Of a stretch of DNA of 64,000 bases, positions 3,740 to 37,817 are shown piece by piece. Below the pieces are notes generated by a model. The model made no database searches. It was given only the letters and a program-made list of their open reading frames with translations, and was not told where the DNA came from. This stretch comes from Escherichia phage Ecwhy_1, in sequence record MH791411.1; one strand, written 5' to 3'. A program made the position numbers and the translations under genes. The stretch's first letter is position 1; each line of letters opens with the position of its first letter.

Positions 3740-4327
3740 TTATTCTTTTGTAATGTTTAGTTTAGAAACGAAATGGTTTTTTGCTTCTTCAAATGTCATT
3801 GAAGTATATACTGGGTTCCAATTATCGTCAAGATCTGTAAGTACTTTAACTTCCATTACATCTTCAGGTGTGTAGAATTGCCATGTGTTATGATCTGGTT
3901 CATAATTAGGGTCTAGTGTGAAAACTGTTCCATTCTGACCATAAACTTGTCCATCCTCTAATAGCTCACGAAATAAGTCTTCCCCAGTTGTTGGGTCTTC
4001 GTATGCATTATAAAAAGGAAAAACAACATTCTCAACATCAGTTCGGGTAGTACCATCGTCTTCATCATATTCAACCAAACGGTCCTGATGAAATACTAGG
4101 TCAATAGCACCAATGCGAGGTTTATTATGTGGAGTTTTGATTTCTTGCTGGGAATTGTAATCCATACGTTCAGTACTGATGAATACACCACTTGGTGTGA
4201 TTTCAATACCAGATACATTTTCTGGTGAATAATAAGAGTCACACATATCATCAATATGCATGTGCTCATGATACACTTCCATTTCAGGGTTCTGCATCAA
4301 CAGTGCTGCTAGGTCTTTTGCTTTCAA
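3740..4327 (-). CDS. hypothetical protein, paralog of 5067..5684
   Basis: N-terminus MKAKDLAALLMQNPEMEVYH...TPSGVFIST matches MKSHDLAKLLLSQPNLDIYH...TPSGIFTT of 5067..5684. Confidence 0.5.
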   Translation of the reverse strand: MKAKDLAALLMQNPEMEVYHEHMHIDDMCDSYYSPENVSGIEITPSGVFISTERMDYNSQQEIKTPHNKPRIGAIDLVFHQDRLVEYDEDDGTTRTDVENVVFPFYNAYEDPTTGEDLFRELLEDGQVYGQNGTVFTLDPNYEPDHNTWQFYTPEDVMEVKVLTDLDDNWNPVYTSMTFEEAKNHFVSKLNITKE

Positions 4328-4716
4328 TCTTCAATCTCCATAGAGTCATCACTTTCGTAATCATCACTAGTGTACTTAGTTTTTACCTCAATACCATTCT
4401 CATGAAGGTATGTGATAAAGCCATTACCATGAACGAATTGATTATAATATGTATTTTCTTCTACATGTGAGTCATAATCATCTTCGTAATATGTGGGCAT
4501 TGTAACATCATGACCAGCACTTTGCAAGTACTGGAACAATTCTTTCAGAACTACTTCGATATCACCTTCTTCTGTGCCATAACAATATGCAGGTTCACCG
4601 TGAGTGAATTTGAATCCTTTACAGGAAACTGTATAAATGTCACTCATGTTCATACCACAATCATCACATTCATGTATAGAACAATGCTGGTGGAATTTAA
4701 TCTTTTTGATTTGCAT
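4324..4716 (-). CDS. hypothetical Cys-containing acidic protein
   Basis: Track ORF, 130 aa; HQHCSIHECDDCG cysteine/histidine cluster. Confidence 0.45.
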   Translation of the reverse strand: MQIKKIKFHQHCSIHECDDCGMNMSDIYTVSCKGFKFTHGEPAYCYGTEEGDIEVVLKELFQYLQSAGHDVTMPTYYEDDYDSHVEENTYYNQFVHGNGFITYLHENGIEVKTKYTSDDYESDDSMEIED

Positions 4717-5050
4717 TTAGAAAATCCTGTAAAGATGTAGTAGACATTGGACTATCAGCACCATCATACCACAGTGATGTATATGGCTGAACTGAACTAA
4801 TATCAATACAGAATCCTTCACGCTCACATTTTCGAGCGAATTCTTCAGTAGTTAGTTTGTTACCAAAAGAAATCTCAAATTCATAACTAGACATATCAAT
4901 ATCAGTACTGTAAATCAATGTACCATCATATGTAATATGGAGTTTAGAATCTGCGTCAAAAAGACGATCTGAAATAGCTTCATAATCATCTTCAGGAACT
5001 GCTTCAATAAGACGGGCCATTAGTCCAGATGTTACGCGGTAATCACTCAT
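4697..5050 (-). CDS. hypothetical protein
   Basis: Track ORF, 117 aa. Confidence 0.45.
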   Translation of the reverse strand: MSDYRVTSGLMARLIEAVPEDDYEAISDRLFDADSKLHITYDGTLIYSTDIDMSSYEFEISFGNKLTTEEFARKCEREGFCIDISSVQPYTSLWYDGADSPMSTTSLQDFLNANQKD

Positions 5051-5066
5051 TTTTTAATCCTTTTTT

Positions 5067-5684
5067 TTATTTTTCAAGTTTATCAATAATAGAAGGTGAT
5101 ACTTTTACATTGAATTCAGAATCAGGAAAATCTTTAGAAAATGAATCAATTTGTTCTTGTGAAAGTTCTTCTTTTTGTGGAAATAACATTTTAACTAAAT
5201 TTTTACCACATTCAATTGCTTCATCATACGACATAGTTTCCCATGTTCCATGCCAAGTACTAGGTTCATATTCTGTCAGTACAGAAATGAAATCAATATC
5301 ATCGGGTGTATACCAAACAGCATTTTGATTCCCTGATGGTGCTGATTGATTTTTACCTAATAAAACAATTGGCTTTTCATAAGGAATGTTAAATATCAAC
5401 CCAGATTCTAAGTTAAGAACAGTTTGAATAGATGAACCCTCCAATTTTGGAGTAATAGTACCATCCTTAAAGAAAATTTGTACATGACCCAAGAGTGGGG
5501 TTTCATATGGTGTAAGTACATTTTCAGAAACTGATGTGGGTTTTGCCGTTGTGAAAATACCAGATGGGGTGACCATTAATTTATTATCAAAATTCTGATA
5601 ATGCAATTCACTATCCACATCATAATGATAAATGTCTAGATTTGGTTGAGATAGTAGTAATTTTGCTAAATCATGAGATTTCAT
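5067..5684 (-). CDS. hypothetical protein, paralog of 3740..4327
   Basis: Start moved to internal ATG at 5684 (MKSHDLAKLL) by paralog alignment and GGAG-type RBS upstream; track start 5714 lies inside a terminator hairpin. Confidence 0.5.
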   Translation of the reverse strand: MKSHDLAKLLLSQPNLDIYHYDVDSELHYQNFDNKLMVTPSGIFTTAKPTSVSENVLTPYETPLLGHVQIFFKDGTITPKLEGSSIQTVLNLESGLIFNIPYEKPIVLLGKNQSAPSGNQNAVWYTPDDIDFISVLTEYEPSTWHGTWETMSYDEAIECGKNLVKMLFPQKEELSQEQIDSFSKDFPDSEFNVKVSPSIIDKLEK

Positions 5685-28532: not shown

Positions 28533-29972
28533 TTACATATTTTCTTCAGCAAATTCTGCCAGTGGTGAACGAACGACACCTTCTAGTTCGATTACACGAC
28601 AACCGTCCCAGTTCTTGAACTTCTCGGTAACATAAGTTAGACCGCTGTTAACTGGACTAATGAATTTAGAGTCAATCTGGCTCAAGTTGCCCATAATAAC
28701 CACTTTACAGTTCATTCCTGCACGAGTCAGGATTGTTTTAGCCTGAGCAGGAGTAATGTTCTGGAATTCATCCACTACTAGGATAGTGTTTGTGAAAGAA
28801 CGCCCACGAACGAAGTTTAGTGCTTTGAACTGGATAACATTACGTTTCATGATTTCTTCGATACTGCCTTGTGGGTTAGCATCATCTTTGTGTAGGAATT
28901 CCAACGCATCAATGGCAGCTCCACAGAATGGAATCACCTTCTCTGCCTCAGAACCTGGCAAGAAACCAATGTCTTCGAATTGGGAATCTTGTGTTTTGGA
29001 GAAGATGATACGGTCGTATTTTTTCTTCTCTAGTACTAGCTCCAGTGCAGTAGCAATGGTGATCAATGTTTTACCAGTACCTGCGGAACCCAACAGTACT
29101 GTTAGATGAACATCAGGATCTAGGATACTGTTGATTGCTAGTGCTTGTTGAATATTCTTAGCCTTAATATCCCACACTTTAGCACGTAGAGCAACAGATT
29201 GTCCAATATCTTGGAATACAAGAATATCTTCTGGTGTTAAAGTACCATCATCTTCTTCAATTGCAGATTGGCCTTCGTACACAAATAGAACATCAGCATT
29301 ATCATATAGGTAATCACCGATGCAAATATTTTGTGGCATGATATGTTCAATCAAGCTTTTTGGAATGTAGTGATACAAACGGCGACCAACTTGTTCAGAT
29401 TGGATAGACACATCAGTTAGATTGCTATACACATCCCAAAAATCTAGGTCGAGGTGATGTTGACCAATGTGAATCAAATCACTATCACCAATCACGATAT
29501 CATGACGATAATCTTGAACTTCCACCCCGTAGCTTAGAGCCTTGATACGCATATTGATATCACGGGTAACCAGTACTGAATCAGTTGCTAATGCTACTAA
29601 AATGATTTTATCATCTGGTACTGTGCTTTTTAGAAGAGTTTGAACTTTCTCTTCGTTACCAGAAGTACGAATTAGTGCTTCAGCTTCTTCGCTTGTAATA
29701 ACAAACAATTTGCTTTCAGGACTCATATTAGTATGAACATCAGCAATATTAACACCAGTACTACTAATTTCTTCATGTGATGCATCAGAAAGGATAGCTT
29801 CAATGTTACGGATTGCAACACGAGCATCACGGGAAACATCCACATTACGACTTTTGATTGAATCCAATTCTTCAAGTACTGTGAACGGTAGAATGATAGC
29901 TGCTCCATCAAAAGCAATGGTAGCATTTGGATCAGATAGTAGTACGTTTGTGTCAATTGTATATTTTTTCAT
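28533..29972 (-). CDS. phoH: PhoH-like ATPase with N-terminal PIN domain
   Basis: N-terminal PIN-like MKKYTIDTNVLL...EELD; Walker A LLGSAGTGKTLITIA; 479 aa. Confidence 0.85.
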   Translation of the reverse strand: MKKYTIDTNVLLSDPNATIAFDGAAIILPFTVLEELDSIKSRNVDVSRDARVAIRNIEAILSDASHEEISSTGVNIADVHTNMSPESKLFVITSEEAEALIRTSGNEEKVQTLLKSTVPDDKIILVALATDSVLVTRDINMRIKALSYGVEVQDYRHDIVIGDSDLIHIGQHHLDLDFWDVYSNLTDVSIQSEQVGRRLYHYIPKSLIEHIMPQNICIGDYLYDNADVLFVYEGQSAIEEDDGTLTPEDILVFQDIGQSVALRAKVWDIKAKNIQQALAINSILDPDVHLTVLLGSAGTGKTLITIATALELVLEKKKYDRIIFSKTQDSQFEDIGFLPGSEAEKVIPFCGAAIDALEFLHKDDANPQGSIEEIMKRNVIQFKALNFVRGRSFTNTILVVDEFQNITPAQAKTILTRAGMNCKVVIMGNLSQIDSKFISPVNSGLTYVTEKFKNWDGCRVIELEGVVRSPLAEFAEENM

Positions 29973-30662: not shown

Positions 30663-31214
30663 CTATAGATAGCTGATTAGTAAGTTTTCTTTTTGTACAA
30701 GATACTCTAATTCTTGTTTCGCAGTTCCGATGAAGTTCTGTGTCATAAGATTATTATATCCTGCTTCTCGATTTTGTCCCTTCGAATAACGAGAGATGTG
30801 ACATAAATTTACACCAGCCACCTCTGCACTAGCATGTTTGCCATATGCATAATTATCACGAAGTTTTTTAAGTTCAGCATAAGTCATTTCATAACTATAG
30901 CTATGTGAGTGACCCTCTGGAAACAATTCAAGTGATTTTAATGGAGACAGGCGACTTTTGTCAATGATATAGTTCATTTCTTCTTGTACTTCACGTTGTA
31001 ACGCATCTTCTAATGACTTATCAGTACTTTCAACTGTTCCACCACATGCACCCAACAATCCATCCCAACGCACTTGTAGGAGTACTAAGTTAACCACTGG
31101 AATATCATTTAGTTCATAACCAGAGTATGGGGTACATTCTTTTGCATAAAAGAAACAGAATACAAAATTTGCACGTTTCCCCAGTTGTCCCAGTGGTACT
31201 TCAGCTTTACTCAT
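30663..31214 (-). CDS. Nudix hydrolase
   Basis: GGTVESTDKSLEDALQREVQEEMNYI approximates the Nudix box (MutT GGKIEMGETPEQAVVRELQEEVGI) with one inserted residue. Confidence 0.6.
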   Translation of the reverse strand: MSKAEVPLGQLGKRANFVFCFFYAKECTPYSGYELNDIPVVNLVLLQVRWDGLLGACGGTVESTDKSLEDALQREVQEEMNYIIDKSRLSPLKSLELFPEGHSHSYSYEMTYAELKKLRDNYAYGKHASAEVAGVNLCHISRYSKGQNREAGYNNLMTQNFIGTAKQELEYLVQKENLLISYL

Positions 31215-31963
31215 CGCATTCGTTCCTTAATTATAGTTTCAACCTGTGGAATTGCTTTCGTCGCAGGTTTGATGACCTTCTCATTAAAAAGAAAATCATT
31301 ATCATTTTTTCGGATGTTAACATTTACACTATAGCATGGAAGTGCACCAGCTAGTCTGGACCATACCAGTACTGTATCACTACTTCCAATAACTACAACT
31401 GTATCATTTTCTGTGAGACTTTTCAACACTTCATTTCGTTCTTCATAAATGGGGAGACGTACCCCATCAACGTAGCGATGATACTCACCAATCATCACTA
31501 CATTTGGTTTTGCAAAAACATCAGCTTTAGGGATATATGGTTCATAACCACAATTAATGACATTGTAATCATCAGTATTAATAGAAAAGTTCTCAATTAC
31601 TTCACATAAATTGCCGTGTAGTTTGAGTTCGGTTCCACCAATTCTAGTATATAGATCATCCATATTAGAAGTCATGTGTAAAAAACAATCACCATACAAA
31701 TCTTCTAATGATTTAATAAAGTAATGCATTTCATTAGGATGACATTCACCTAATTTTACACGCAATGTATTATAAAATGAATGAACTATATGATACTTAG
31801 AACTAAGTCGTGCAATGTTACAAACATCATTAATTTTGAAATTGTCCCACAACCCATCATCAAAGCGGAATGGTTCCATCCCGCTCTCAACTGAAAGACC
31901 TGCCCCTGAAATTATAAGTAATCTTTTGTTCCCAGCATTTTGTATAAATTTATCTGATATCAC
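31211..31963 (-). CDS. Sir2-family NAD-dependent deacylase / ADP-ribosyltransferase-like protein
   Basis: ISGAGLSVESGMEPFR (GAGIS.ESGIP.FR motif), TSNMDDL, LHGNL catalytic-His motif, PNVVMIGE, VVVIGSSDTV; Zn-binding Cys tetrad degenerate (two Cys only). Confidence 0.65.
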   Translation of the reverse strand: MISDKFIQNAGNKRLLIISGAGLSVESGMEPFRFDDGLWDNFKINDVCNIARLSSKYHIVHSFYNTLRVKLGECHPNEMHYFIKSLEDLYGDCFLHMTSNMDDLYTRIGGTELKLHGNLCEVIENFSINTDDYNVINCGYEPYIPKADVFAKPNVVMIGEYHRYVDGVRLPIYEERNEVLKSLTENDTVVVIGSSDTVLVWSRLAGALPCYSVNVNIRKNDNDFLFNEKVIKPATKAIPQVETIIKERMR

Positions 31964-31972
31964 ATTTACTCC

Positions 31973-32164
31973 TTATATAAAAAGTATCAAGTTTAATACT
32001 AAAAATACAATGATAGCAATATGATAGACATACATCCACTTATTGTGTCCATGTTTATTACCATTCCTGAATTCTCGGTATAAACATTTAGTATGATTGT
32101 ATAACACCACACAAATAAACACAACTATGAAACAAAAAATCCACTCGTAAACTATGTATGCCAT
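31973..32164 (-). CDS. small membrane protein
   Basis: 63 aa, two hydrophobic helices. Confidence 0.4.
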   Translation of the reverse strand: MAYIVYEWIFCFIVVFICVVLYNHTKCLYREFRNGNKHGHNKWMYVYHIAIIVFLVLNLILFI

Positions 32165-32195: not shown

Positions 32196-32789
32196 TCAGT
32201 ATTTCAAAATATCAAACTCTGGACTAACACTTGTTACATTATCACTGACAATTTTGAAAATAGACTCAACACGTTCATGTAACTGAACATTGGTTTCTTC
32301 TTGAACTTCAATATACGCTGACATGGATGCAATTGCATGATAAGTCCCACTTCCGACAGCAGTAATTTGTGTTTTAGGTTGCAGTACTGAAAAGTCTTCT
32401 TGAACTTCATAAATCGTATGATTATGAAGAATAATGAACTGACCACCACCAACGTCTTGTGATGCATCACGAGCACCCCATTCATCTTTAAACATTTGAC
32501 GAATGATAGGAATAACTTTCAGTACTAGATACTGTGAAAAGGTTTCCCCTGCAACTTGTTCTGGTAGAGTTAGGTTGTAATTCAACAACTGTCCCATGCG
32601 GAACGAGGTAGTATACCCCAACGCCATTACTTCTTTAGTGCGAGAAAGACCATCCTCATTGAGTTTAATGAACTCTTTCTCAAATACTTTAGGCTCAGTT
32701 TGAACTGCTTTAGTGAAACCATTGCTTCCTAATTTATCACCAGCGATGAAGGAAGATGTGCCATTTGTGTGAGCGATAATACAAGTCAT
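32196..32789 (-). CDS. HslV / proteasome beta-subunit-like Ntn hydrolase
   Basis: Start set to ATG at 32789 preceded by AAGGAG RBS with 7-nt spacer; product begins MTCIIAHTNGTSSFIAGDKLGSNG (HslV [25 protein letters not shown]) and has ITAVGSGTYHAIASMSAY (HslV IAIGSGGPYAQAAARAL). Confidence 0.55.
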   Translation of the reverse strand: MTCIIAHTNGTSSFIAGDKLGSNGFTKAVQTEPKVFEKEFIKLNEDGLSRTKEVMALGYTTSFRMGQLLNYNLTLPEQVAGETFSQYLVLKVIPIIRQMFKDEWGARDASQDVGGGQFIILHNHTIYEVQEDFSVLQPKTQITAVGSGTYHAIASMSAYIEVQEETNVQLHERVESIFKIVSDNVTSVSPEFDILKY

Positions 32790-33046
32790 GAAATAACTCC
32801 TTGTGCAAAAAGGGCCGTATACAACCAGTATATCAACAACCCTAGTGTAAGTAAACATGCTCCATAAGAAATTGATAGAACATAGTAAATTCCTGCTTCT
32901 AACTTGGATGAAAATTTGTGTGTACTGGAATCCATAAAACCACGTTTGTAGTCTTTATAGATGAAACATGTTAAAACTAATGTAATGCAATATACAATAG
33001 TTGTTGCATAAAAAACAAGAGATGTTAAGTTTTGTAAATTTGTCAT
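32786..33046 (-). CDS. small membrane protein
   Basis: 86 aa, two hydrophobic helices. Confidence 0.45.
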   Translation of the reverse strand: MTNLQNLTSLVFYATTIVYCITLVLTCFIYKDYKRGFMDSSTHKFSSKLEAGIYYVLSISYGACLLTLGLLIYWLYTALFAQGVIS

Positions 33047-33138
33047 AGTTTATACACTCCTAGTGTATGTGAACTTATAACAAAGGATGTACCACTTTAT
33101 CATCCTCTTATTATAATATTATTATTTTGTATCTAATA

Positions 33139-33747
33139 CTAATGAATGATACTACCTAATTCGAGCAACTGATCTGGTGTAAGTCTTACAACTTCATTAC
33201 CACGAACCTTACTAACCTCCACTAACAATTCTGGAGGAATACCATTCGCTGCATATAACGCAAATAGAACACCAACCTTAGTTGATAGCTGTTCAGCAAA
33301 AATAGTCATTTGGCGAACTGATATGTATGTGTCATCACTATTTCGTGCTTTACTTTCGATTGACACATTATGTAGACCTAGAATTGAGTCCTTCATCATG
33401 TATCTGTTTTCTATATTAGCACTAAAGAATGCGATAGTGCAAGAAGAATTACAATATCTTTCAACAATAATTGTTAAATTGTTATCATTGACAAAATTTC
33501 CTAGTGCCACTCCCGCATCAAAATCACCACCTGGTGACGTAATGATGATCGTGTCAAATGGGTGTGTTTCTCTAAAAACCATCAAACGGTTTACAGTATT
33601 TTCAGTTAAAGTTGAAATGAACTGAACTGTCTGTTTAGATTCATCATATCTAATGATACTTTTTCTTTCAACACCTGCACTTGCAGGAAAGTTAATTAAG
33701 AAAATAATAATAATAGATTGGATGATTTCTTTACATAATCGTACCAC
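33139..33747 (-). CDS. secreted ClpP/S49-family serine peptidase-like protein
   Basis: GTG start with AAGAGGG RBS; N-terminal signal-like segment; TSPGGDFDAGVALGNFV resembles the ClpP/SppA xSPGG motif. Confidence 0.5.
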   Translation of the reverse strand: MVRLCKEIIQSIIIIFLINFPASAGVERKSIIRYDESKQTVQFISTLTENTVNRLMVFRETHPFDTIIITSPGGDFDAGVALGNFVNDNNLTIIVERYCNSSCTIAFFSANIENRYMMKDSILGLHNVSIESKARNSDDTYISVRQMTIFAEQLSTKVGVLFALYAANGIPPELLVEVSKVRGNEVVRLTPDQLLELGSIIH

Positions 33748-33787
33748 TGGTTAACCCTCTTAGTTGATTGTTGATTACATAAATAAT

Positions 33788-33814
33788 ATTATAGGAAGAT
33801 TTAACTTAAGTCAA
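33788..33814 (-). promoter_or_regulatory. possible sigma70-type promoter
   Basis: On minus strand TTGACT, 15-nt spacer, TATAAT, about 40 nt upstream of the GTG start at 33747; spacer is short. Confidence 0.25.
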
Positions 33815-34000
33815 ATTGTTTTTTATATCACTTCACAAATTCCCTCGCAGAATCACCCCGCCTTTTTACCTTCTTTGGAATGATTATATCACACTAATGT
33901 ATAATGTCTATGCTTTTGTCAACAAATAACGTGGTAGTACTGAACTCGTTGTTGGTTCTAAGAGTTTTCCTGAAATTCAAACAAGTTGTGTACTAACAAA

Positions 34001-34030
34001 AGAAAAAGGAGCCTTATGGCTCCTTTTTTT
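34001..34030. terminator. putative bidirectional intrinsic terminator
   Basis: Stem GGAGCC/GGCTCC with TTAT loop flanked by an A-run on one side and T7 on the other. Confidence 0.5.
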
Positions 34031-36389: not shown

Positions 36390-36666
36390 GTTCTTGACGC
36401 ATAGCTTCTGCGTGTTGAACTGCGTTAATTGGATTAATGTTCTTTTTAATAAGAACTTCTTGCATTAGTTCGAGAACAATAGAAAAACCATTGAGTACTC
36501 GTTCTGCCTCGTCAACACCTTTCAATTCAATAGCCACTGCACTAATCTGATCTAATGCGGTATTAATAAACTCTGAATCATCTAACACATCATTGACTTC
36601 AGTATTATTACGTACAAGAACTTTCATATAATCTCCAGAAATAAGATGCCCCAAATGAGGCATCAA
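36337..36666 (-). CDS. hypothetical protein
   Basis: Track ORF, 109 aa. Confidence 0.45.
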   Translation of the reverse strand: MMPHLGHLISGDYMKVLVRNNTEVNDVLDDSEFINTALDQISAVAIELKGVDEAERVLNGFSIVLELMQEVLIKKNINPINAVQHAEAMRQEHGTFSDKKFISTDEGKE

Positions 36667-36678
36667 ATGAAATTCAAA

Positions 36679-37374
36679 TTAGACCCACTCTTCCACGCCA
36701 CCGCGACGTTTGACGAGATACTTACCTTCTTCGTTGCGTGGACCAAGGATGATACCATCAATGAAACCATGTTCACCGTATTCGAGTGCTTCTTCAGCGT
36801 TCAACCACAGGTCACGATCCGCATCTTTCAGTAGTTGTTCGTGTGATACACCAACTGCTTCAGCAATTTCTTTAGTCAGTAGTGTGTTCAATGCATCAGA
36901 GTGTTTCAAGGAAATCTTCTGATCAGTAATCAGACCCTGAGTACCGGAACTTACTTGGTGACACATGAAGTAAGAACGCTTCCCGCCTAGACGGAAACCT
37001 TTAGTACCAACTACTGATTGTGTATAGCAACCCATTGATGCTGCATAACCCATTACTACTGTACGGATAGGAGATACACAAGACTTAGCAATGTCAGCGA
37101 TACCTAAACCTGCGTGTACTGAACCACCAGGAGAACTAATGTAGAAGGTAATTGGTTCAGAACCCTGAGAATCCAACCACACCAATTGTTGCTTGATGAT
37201 ATGTGCCATTTGGTCATTGAAGTCAGTATCAAGGAAAATGATACGGTCTTGCATCATACGAGATGCTAGATCATAAGTACGTTCTGCACCATTAACTTTT
37301 TCAACTACATAAGGAATAGAAATGTCGCGAACTTCACCACCAGCATAACCACCAAAATTGAATTGTTCAACCAT
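36679..37374 (-). CDS. clpP: ATP-dependent Clp protease proteolytic subunit
   Basis: YISSPGGSVHAGLGI, catalytic-Ser context GYAASMG, His in MCHQVS, Asp in DADRDLWLNAEEALEYG; 231 aa. Confidence 0.85.
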   Translation of the reverse strand: MVEQFNFGGYAGGEVRDISIPYVVEKVNGAERTYDLASRMMQDRIIFLDTDFNDQMAHIIKQQLVWLDSQGSEPITFYISSPGGSVHAGLGIADIAKSCVSPIRTVVMGYAASMGCYTQSVVGTKGFRLGGKRSYFMCHQVSSGTQGLITDQKISLKHSDALNTLLTKEIAEAVGVSHEQLLKDADRDLWLNAEEALEYGEHGFIDGIILGPRNEEGKYLVKRRGGVEEWV

Positions 37375-37433
37375 TGTTATTTTCCTCTATTGTTTCATTG
37401 ATGTGAGTATTATATCACAGTGTTCGTATTTGT

Positions 37434-37817
37434 CTACAAGTTTCTTAAAAAATCGAGTAAACCGCAAATTGTATGTTTATTAAACATATCGTGGTCAATC
37501 TTTAACAACTTAACCATAGCATTATCATACACCGTAGAGTCGGTAATGTCAAACAAAGAATTTGTGTAATAACGTTCATTTTCTACATAAATGTATAATT
37601 CATTTGATTTGTCAAGATCTTCATAGAAGTTAGCATCAAAGTACTCTGCATTTCCATCAATCCAAACCTCAACTGAATCATCATCTAAGCAGTAGTTTCT
37701 TGCTTCTTTTGAATATATTTCCAGCTTTCTGGCTGCACTGGAGTAATGTTTATAACCATTAATTACGTACTTTATTTCATCATTGTACTCAATTACATAC
37801 ACAACGATATTTTCCAT
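37434..37817 (-). CDS. hypothetical acidic protein
   Basis: Track ORF, 127 aa. Confidence 0.5.
   Translation of the reverse strand: MENIVVYVIEYNDEIKYVINGYKHYSSAARKLEIYSKEARNYCLDDDSVEVWIDGNAEYFDANFYEDLDKSNELYIYVENERYYTNSLFDITDSTVYDNAMVKLLKIDHDMFNKHTICGLLDFLRNL

Follow-up and report, generated by a model that had tools for sequence, protein, structure and literature searches.

Three genes for predicted peptidases lie near one another in Escherichia phage Ecwhy_1 (MH791411.1), of which one stretch of 64,000 nucleotides, here called the window, was analyzed. They encode a ClpP subunit (g207), a putative exported peptidase with the ClpP fold (g214), and an HslV-like threonine peptidase (g216). 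With a probability of about 0.6, these are three unrelated, separately evolving peptidases that probably act in different places and do not make up one machine: a ClpP that works with ClpA, the threonine peptidase, and the exported enzyme. All three genes are real and probably active, with activity predicted from sequence, and all three products are members of known folds that have already been annotated. The genes are as follows.

36679..37374, minus strand: g207, ClpP (S14) proteolytic subunit, 231 residues, with the triad Ser113/His139/Asp188.
33139..33747, minus strand: g214, putative Ser-His peptidase with the ClpP fold and a signal-peptide-like N-terminus, 202 residues, carrying PASA|G, TSPGG, Cys99-x-Ser101-x-Cys103, and His126.
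32196..32789, minus strand: g216, predicted cytoplasmic Ntn threonine peptidase of the proteasome-beta/HslV fold, 197 residues, with Thr1 after Met removal, Asp17, Lys33, and GSG.

The ~7-kb stretch around these genes is 100% identical to Escherichia phage fEgEco12 (PP777464.1, 374,733 bp), a Rak2-like (Asteriusvirus-like) jumbo phage. Several other coliphages match the stretch at 98-99.7% identity, and phage 121Q, the type species of Asteriusvirus, at ~79%. A window position w corresponds to position 117917 - w of the fEgEco12 record. An earlier reading of the sequence (the original prediction) had placed the three open reading frames on the same strand, and all are present on the minus strand, as are the neighboring genes discussed below. 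Since fEgEco12 names g216 'protease', g214 'head maturation protease', and g207 'protease', and 121Q names the orthologues 'protease (ClpYQ-like)' once and 'protease (ClpP-like)' twice, the three genes are already in the public record at the product-name level. Three of the ~5 protease-fold genes among 670 annotated coding sequences fall within ten genes, which is closer than random placement gives. The literature search brought up no work on the function of phage HslV-like proteins or Asteriusvirus Clp genes.

The product of 36679..37374 had been called a canonical ClpP, and profile searches agree. g207 matches the Pfam family CLP_protease at 1.3e-41 (143 bits) and the NCBIfam ClpP models at 153-156 bits, compared with 51 bits for Clp_rel_HeadMat, and its S113, H139, and D188 are invariant in the family alignment. 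Against the ClpP equivalog model TIGR00493 it scores 153 bits, below the cutoff of 308.6, and it shares 36% identity with E. coli ClpP and 44-53% with cellular-type ClpPs (~190-230 residues) from metagenomes. On these scores g207 is a divergent phage lineage of ClpP, conserved as well in RaK2, GAP32, and relatives from Erwinia.

Partners of the peptidases were sought in the annotation of the whole fEgEco12 genome and by tblastn with E. coli ClpP, ClpX, Lon, HslU, HslV, ClpA, and ClpS. The gene g327 (PP777464.1 168077..170365, outside the window) encodes a 762-residue double-AAA+ protein with 43% identity to E. coli ClpA over 732 residues, and its orthologue is already called 'ClpA-like' in the 121Q and RaK2 annotations. 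In ClpA, the segment KSIGLIH holds the IGL tripeptide that docks onto ClpP. This segment aligns with RSIGMSG of g327 (IGL versus IGM), which fits a [LIV]-G-[FLM] docking loop. The ClpA-ClpP pair is conserved across relatives including RaK2, whose genome table lists ClpP as ORF489 and ClpA as ORF069, CBB, and phages of Erwinia and Serratia. A further gene, g414 (PP777464.1 251795..252340), gives a pairwise E of 3e-5 against E. coli ClpS. Together, g207 and g327 would form a phage-owned ATP-dependent ClpAP protease in the cytoplasm, which g414 may serve as a ClpS-like adaptor. Judged from the family assignments of its parts, such a phage-owned ClpAP complex is the most likely arrangement.

The original prediction had proposed looking for cognate unfoldases across the full genome; this ClpA orthologue is the partner found for ClpP, and none was found for the HslV-like g216. 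E. coli HslU, ClpX, and Lon match only the second AAA+ module of g327 in the 374,733-bp genome, and weakly, and no HslU is annotated anywhere in fEgEco12. Since the HslU search reaches only the ClpA gene, and weakly, the phage is without HslU. ClpP, ClpS, and ClpA/ClpX have been noted in jumbo phages before, with the suggestion that ClpP is deployed against host proteins (Iyer et al., 2021; PMC7824862).

The mechanical open reading frame of g216 spans 32196..32858, with a better start at 32789 (MTCIIAHTNG...). An AAGGAG Shine-Dalgarno sequence lies 8 nt upstream of this codon, which overlaps the stop codon of the preceding gene g215 by 4 nt (ATGA) and is the annotated start in fEgEco12 and 121Q, and the resulting Met-Thr-Cys N-terminus is invariant in 34/34 aligned homologues. 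On these grounds 32789 is the correct start, and the N-terminal Thr that had been predicted from the ribosome-binding site is borne out. No Pfam family matches g216, and PHROG 1040 ('peptidase HslV family') matches at 2.6e-22. Because single-sequence searches of the PDB with g216 and with g214 gave nothing significant, family profiles were needed for both. In the 34-sequence g216 alignment M1, T2, C3, D18, K34, Q67, G146, G148, and V188 are invariant and G58 is nearly so; once Met1 is discounted, these include the Thr1, Asp17, Lys33, and GSG motif of proteasome-type peptidases. A search of structures with the family profile returns HslV at E 7.6e-8, with Thr1, Asp17, Lys33, and GSG aligned to their HslV equivalents, and the betaproteobacterial proteasome homologue (BPH) weakly, at E 0.003-0.005. 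An AlphaFold monomer model (pLDDT 92, pTM 0.88), with helices at 63-72 and 84-104 and helix H2 present, retrieves HslV from the PDB in Foldseek at E 2.5e-10 and BPH at TM 0.75-0.80. g216 therefore shows the alpha-beta-beta-alpha fold and the Thr1/Asp17/Lys33/conserved Gly/GSG set of the proteasome-beta/HslV superfamily (MEROPS T1, Ntn), in keeping with the HslV-like Ntn hydrolase with catalytic Thr1/Lys33 that had been proposed. A structure outside the Ntn fold or without the catalytic residues, named beforehand as the outcome that would speak against the proposal, was not obtained, since both are present.

g216 is not an HslV orthologue, since it falls far below the NCBIfam HslV equivalog cutoffs (NF003964, 18.9 bits against 137; TIGR03692, 18.1 bits against 157.75) and shares 16-20% identity with HslV in structural alignments. 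Membership in the phage-borne PPH family was also ruled out, as PPH is defined by ~140 residues without helix H2 (PMC8665760), and g216 has 197 residues with H2. PPH, AAH, and CPH have been described as 'group I', a radiation out of BPH and HslV (Fuchs, Alva, Lupas and colleagues, 2021; PMC8665760). In the g216 family, the median length of the loop after helix 2 is 17 residues and its net charge -2, and proteins of the jumbo-phage clade carry an insertion of 14 residues immediately behind Lys33. A long acidic loop in BPH has been related to unfoldase independence, the loop of HslV being short (Fuchs et al.; PMC8665760). Since the phage lacks HslU and the g216 loop after H2 is long and acidic as in BPH, an unfoldase-independent, BPH-like peptidase for peptides or unfolded chains is the favored, though analogical, view of g216. 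Host methionine aminopeptidase would strip Met1 and expose the Thr1 nucleophile, with Asp17 and Lys33 completing the active site, and the subunits should then assemble into stacked rings enclosing the active sites. Both the rings and the substrates are proposed by analogy with HslV and BPH.

The g216 family was found by tblastn in 197 phage records, with carriers among Asteriusvirus-type jumbo phages, many T5-like Epseptimavirus of Salmonella and E. coli, Vibrio and Aeromonas phages, and Geobacillus virus E3, and BFVD holds 32 viral models with the g216 fold at E <= 0.001. In T5-like phages the gene stands among nucleotide-metabolism genes. It comes after PhoH in two contigs of metagenomic phages, ~62 and ~88 kb long, and nicotinamide adenine dinucleotide (NAD) salvage genes lie nearby in the 88-kb contig. 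PhoH is a repeated neighbor of the HslV-like gene among phages not otherwise related; the window has a 479-residue PhoH-like protein at 28533..29972, with an N-terminal PIN-like extension seen by eye. Aeromonas phage 2L372D carries two adjacent 'peptidase HslV family' genes of 183 and 294 residues (locus 4001..5454), a hint of hetero-oligomeric phage proteasome-like complexes. A second gene annotated 'HslV' in fEgEco12, g518 (PP777464.1 305560..306057, 165 residues), was not confirmed as a family member: it has an MTT... start, a GSGG motif, and a match to PHROG 1040 at 2.8e-6 as its only support, whereas hhalign gave 0.1% probability against the g216 family and searches of the PDB and Pfam returned nothing. 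Another label in the same record, 'peptidase' for g432 (PP777464.1 269481..270170), is probably wrong, because that protein matches an Rv2179c-like 3'-5' exoribonuclease domain.

The exported candidate g214 starts at a GTG codon behind an AGAGG site and carries the motif TSPGGDFDAG. Its leader has basic residues, a 13-residue hydrophobic core (12-residue Kyte-Doolittle value 2.5), and the PASA|G site, and a basic and hydrophobic N-terminal leader is found in 19/19 phage-type family members. The protein matches PHROG 26024 at 3.7e-70. Pfam CLP_protease gives 20.6 bits (cutoff 20.2), and hhalign of the family against a ClpP alignment gives a probability of 94.1% and E 1.3e-7 over 152 columns, placing Ser101 on the ClpP Ser (S113) and His126 on the ClpP His (H139); profile matches in the PDB are to ClpP and NfeD. 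The residues S71, G73, G74, C99, S101, C103, H126, N127, Y165, G169, and P171 are invariant in the 19 phage-type sequences, and in the wider set S101 is still invariant and H126 nearly so. No Lys is invariant in either the phage-type or the wider alignment, as an S49-type Ser-Lys dyad would need. The label 'S49-like' was accordingly dropped, the invariant partner of Ser being a His, as in ClpP/S14. Of the secreted ClpP/S49-like peptidase that had been predicted at 33139..33747, the signal-peptide-like N-terminus, the ClpP fold, and the SPGG motif stand, and the S49 assignment does not.

From its leader, g214 is probably exported through Sec and periplasmic, where it would act as a Ser101-His126 peptidase with the ClpP fold, and its location and targets are proposed on that basis. 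The two invariant cysteines flanking the nucleophile could form a disulfide, and such a pair would suit an oxidizing compartment. Identity between fEgEco12 and 121Q is 50% for g214, 83% for g216, and 96% for g207 (against 121Q gp464). Few conserved genes of this stretch evolve as fast as g214, and a fast rate would be fitting for a protein in contact with components of the host envelope. A word-indexed homology search with g214 found ten close clusters only, all from Asteriusvirus-type phages, and an exhaustive search by profile brought in 1497 representatives (E <= 0.001). About 15 of these are full-length relatives of 186-225 residues, accompanied by a few shorter fragments; those whose contigs were examined (P0083, P0087, and P0094) all lie in Rak2-like contigs beside a divergent immunoglobulin-like (Ig-like, Big_2) gene. 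The remainder are mostly 230-300 residues long, and the single contig examined is bacterial. Sampled members of this longer group have signal or lipoprotein (lipobox) leaders and the motifs S-x-G-G, Y-C-x-S-S-C-A-N-Y, and G-x-H-G, and none reaches a curated cutoff of Pfam or NCBIfam. With ~1,500 uncurated relatives and no Pfam or NCBIfam model, the g214 family represents a gap in protease classification, and the exported Cys-x-Ser-x-Cys family is the least charted of the three. Upstream of g214, a 280-nt intergenic gap in fEgEco12 (window 33748..34028) is occupied in 121Q (gp471/472) and in metagenomic relatives by an Ig-like (Big_2) gene divergent from the exported ClpP-like gene; the Ig-like gene seems to have been lost from fEgEco12.

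Whether the three genes form one system depends on their transcription and their neighbors. The relevant sites and genes of the window are the following, the promoter and terminator entries being candidates.

37409..37436, minus strand: promoter-like site TAGACA-N13-TGATATAAT upstream of ClpP g207.
36645..36664, minus strand: terminator-like hairpin directly after the ClpP stop codon.
34003..34028, minus strand: intrinsic-terminator-like hairpin with an 11-bp stem and then a T run, ending the upstream unit.
33883..33910, minus strand: promoter-like site TAGACA-N13-TGATATAAT upstream of g214.
12060, 33883, 37409, 41171, 45066, 58072, and 59775, minus strand: promoter-like motif with at most one mismatch.
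32786..33046, minus strand: g215, small protein of 86 residues with two hydrophobic segments.
31973..32164, minus strand: g217, small hydrophobic protein of 63 residues directly downstream of g216, its membership in any system uncertain.
30663..31963, in the window: Sir2 g218 and Nudt16-like NUDIX g219.

Within the window, TAGACA-N13-TGATATAAT is matched perfectly at its two listed sites and nowhere else. The form (T/G)AGACA-N13-TGATATAAT with at most one mismatch occurs seven times against 1.3 expected, always on the coding strand, and may mark a class of phage promoters recognized by host sigma-70. Since each has a perfect site, the ClpP unit and the g214 unit may share a temporal class. g214, g215, and g216 fall into a predicted unit separate from that of ClpP, beginning at 33910..33883. 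Hydropathy windows above 1.6 occur in both halves of g215, and the g215-g216 arrangement matches that at 121Q gp474; Salmonella phage Munch has a diverged small hydrophobic protein upstream. g217 has no clear counterpart in 121Q. An Rfam scan and a repeat search of the region gave nothing relevant.

Distant Rak2-like contigs keep the order of ClpP, dCMP deaminase, and then the Ig-like gene and the exported ClpP-like gene, and the next slot holds NMNAT-NUDIX, NAMPT, and Acb1 before Sir2, with no HslV-like gene. In Salmonella phage Munch, the HslV-like gene is found with an adenylyltransferase and NAPRTase (NAD salvage), without the exported ClpP-like gene. The fEgEco12 slot between the exported ClpP-like gene and Sir2 holds only the small membrane protein and the HslV-like gene. 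This slot looks like a counter-defense hot spot, and the position of the HslV-like gene in a variable slot that elsewhere holds known counter-defense genes is suggestive, as guilt by association. A single operon of the three genes was rejected on the basis of the predicted terminators and promoters and of the synteny comparison, and the three are probably not one unit. Thus, of the protease-rich neighborhood in the original prediction, the tighter-than-random clustering remains, and its reading as one unit gives way to separate predicted units with differing synteny.

The alternatives differ in which of the three proteins they concern. That the genes form one functional, co-selected 'protease island' for counter-defense is suggested by their closeness on one strand, by the promoter-like motif common to g214 and ClpP, and by the slot beside g214, which in relatives holds NAD-salvage genes and Acb1 (known anti-defense genes), then Sir2 and NUDIX. 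We nevertheless regard it as very unlikely, since the predicted transcription units and compartments differ, divergence to 121Q is uneven (96%, 83%, and 50% identity), and there are relatives with the other two that lack the HslV-like gene, which in turn occurs without them in T5-like and other unrelated phages. Least probable is a role as head-maturation (prohead) protease for any of the three, although PHROG and GenBank name g207 and g214 so. PHROG 94 'head maturation protease' matches g207 at 1.1e-43, fEgEco12 gives g214 the same label, and ClpP-fold prohead proteases are common in phages. However, a dedicated T4 gp21-type protease is present: g348 (PP777464.1 202848..203468, outside the window) matches Peptidase_S77 at 8e-21 and also PHROG 207, and sits between the portal and major capsid protein genes, ~120 kb from the three protease genes, g207 among them. 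None of g216, g214, and g207 matches Pfam Peptidase_S77; g207 fits cellular ClpP models (153 bits) better than Clp_rel_HeadMat (51 bits) and has a ClpA partner, and g214 has an export leader. In addition, the virion mass-spectrometry table of RaK2 includes gp092, the gp21-like orthologue of g348, and no Clp protein. On its family match and position, g348 is assigned capsid maturation, rather than g216, g214, or g207, and the original prediction was right to set the three apart from prohead proteases.

Two further alternatives concern g216. It is conceivable, though doubtful, that g216 docks onto host HslU, either forming a hybrid ATP-dependent protease with phage-set properties or titrating HslU from host HslV, given that HslV is the best sequence-profile match of the family (E 7.6e-8) and that the host encodes HslU and the phage none. 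Against this stand the low identity to HslV (16-20%), the 18-19 bits on NCBIfam HslV models with cutoffs of 137-158, and the long acidic pore loop, which is unlike the short HslV loop (Fuchs et al.; PMC8665760). The family also spans phages of hosts as unlike as Geobacillus, Vibrio, and Aeromonas. Lys28 of HslV, which contacts the HslU C-terminus, stands opposite a non-basic residue in the g216 profile alignment. Still less probable is that g216 is no protease at all and acts as an Ntn amidohydrolase, as a connectase-like ligase, or as a catalytically dead structural subunit. The proteasome-like superfamily does include a ligase, connectase, and the jumbo-phage insertion after Lys33 lies near the site of the connectase specificity insertion. 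For g214, the N-terminal helix may be kept as a membrane anchor, with NfeD/SppA-like trimming of membrane or signal peptides, for example g215 and g217. This has some claim, as the top PDB profile matches include the NfeD (1510-N) protease (E 0.004), FPASA is more strongly conserved than is usual in a leader that is cut off, and small membrane-protein genes lie just downstream, but it is unlikely given the classical n-h-c layout with a PASA|G site, the bacterial relatives with lipoboxes or cleavable-looking leaders, and the invariant His without invariant Lys, where NfeD and SppA use Ser-Lys. A bolder joint proposal, which we think rather improbable, makes g214 an undescribed extracytoplasmic Ser-His class of the ClpP fold, its nucleophile clamped by a Cys-x-Ser-x-Cys disulfide, widespread in bacterial lipoproteins and captured by Rak2-like phages as a fast-evolving periplasmic effector. 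The enzyme would cleave host envelope proteins (receptors, envelope defense or stress sensors) to block superinfection or defense, and the translationally coupled membrane-protein/HslV-like pair would form an ATPase-free 'mini-proteasome' in the slot that holds Acb1/NAD-salvage genes in relatives.

The preferred reading, three separate peptidases, must itself be set against several points that weigh against it. Host ClpX or ClpA could just as well be the partner of the phage ClpP, and the ClpS likeness of g414 is weak: its five PDB matches are all ClpS, with E values of 0.4-0.7, and Pfam gives no match. The promoter and terminator sites that divide the units are consensus matches, and the signal peptide of g214 was judged solely by hydropathy and the AXA rule. 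An AlphaFold2 model of g214 from a 10-sequence alignment is unreliable (pLDDT 48), so its fold rests on sequence profiles, whose matches are significant without being overwhelming (Pfam, 0.4 bits over the cutoff; hhalign, 94%). The Ser/His/Asp geometry that the original prediction had proposed checking in 33139..33747 is present as Ser101 and His126 at the ClpP positions, and the Asp has no conserved counterpart: the column aligned with ClpP Asp (E. coli Asp171) is variable, and no acidic residue downstream of His126 is invariant in the g214 alignment. Finally, no biochemical, proteomic, or transcriptomic data on g216, g214, or g207 were found in the literature.

If active, these genes mean that a jumbo coliphage brings a complete ClpA-ClpP (possibly ClpS) protease, at least one proteasome-like peptidase, and a periplasmic ClpP-fold peptidase. 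To our knowledge, a substrate has yet to be demonstrated for any ClpAP, proteasome homologue, or exported ClpP-like enzyme that a phage encodes. A host-directed role, in which such enzymes reprogram proteostasis or degrade defense proteins, is plausible, and identification of the targets would reveal in what ways large virulent phages reshape the proteome or the envelope of their hosts. Since the genes are publicly labeled as proteases and the host-directed idea has been published, the advance here is a refinement rather than a discovery.

Compared with known systems, the prohead protease of T4, gp21 (S77), is represented by g348 and is unrelated in fold and position to g216, g214, and g207. 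The phage ClpAP(S) resembles that of E. coli in the ClpP fold and triad of g207, in a full-length ClpA orthologue with the docking tripeptide loop, and in the ClpS-like g414; it differs in that the phage genes are scattered at ~81, 168, and 252 kb of the record, its ClpP is 36% identical, and g414, weakly similar to E. coli ClpS, has an extra N-terminal region of ~60 residues. HslV (ClpQ; MEROPS T1B) shares with g216 the fold, the Thr exposed by Met removal, Asp17, Lys33, GSG, and a length of ~180-200 residues. The g216 family departs from HslV in its invariant Cys2, its long acidic loop after H2, and the 14-residue insertion of the jumbo-phage clade, as well as in its 16-20% identity, its scores below the equivalog cutoffs, and the lack of a cognate HslU in the phage genome. 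BPH (PDB 5ovs/5ovt/5ovu) is bacterial and forms heptameric double rings, whereas g216 is known as a monomer model and its profile match to BPH is weak. PPH, AAH, and CPH are, like g216, proteasome-like proteins of tailed phages without a propeptide and with function not known (PMC8665760). As to g214, its ClpP/crotonase fold and its S-x-G-G oxyanion segment recur in NfeD/1510-N (S49-like) and SppA (S49), which are extracytoplasmic, as g214 is predicted to be. In contrast to the Ser-Lys dyad of those enzymes, the g214 family has an invariant His at the ClpP position together with Cys-x-Ser-x-Cys.

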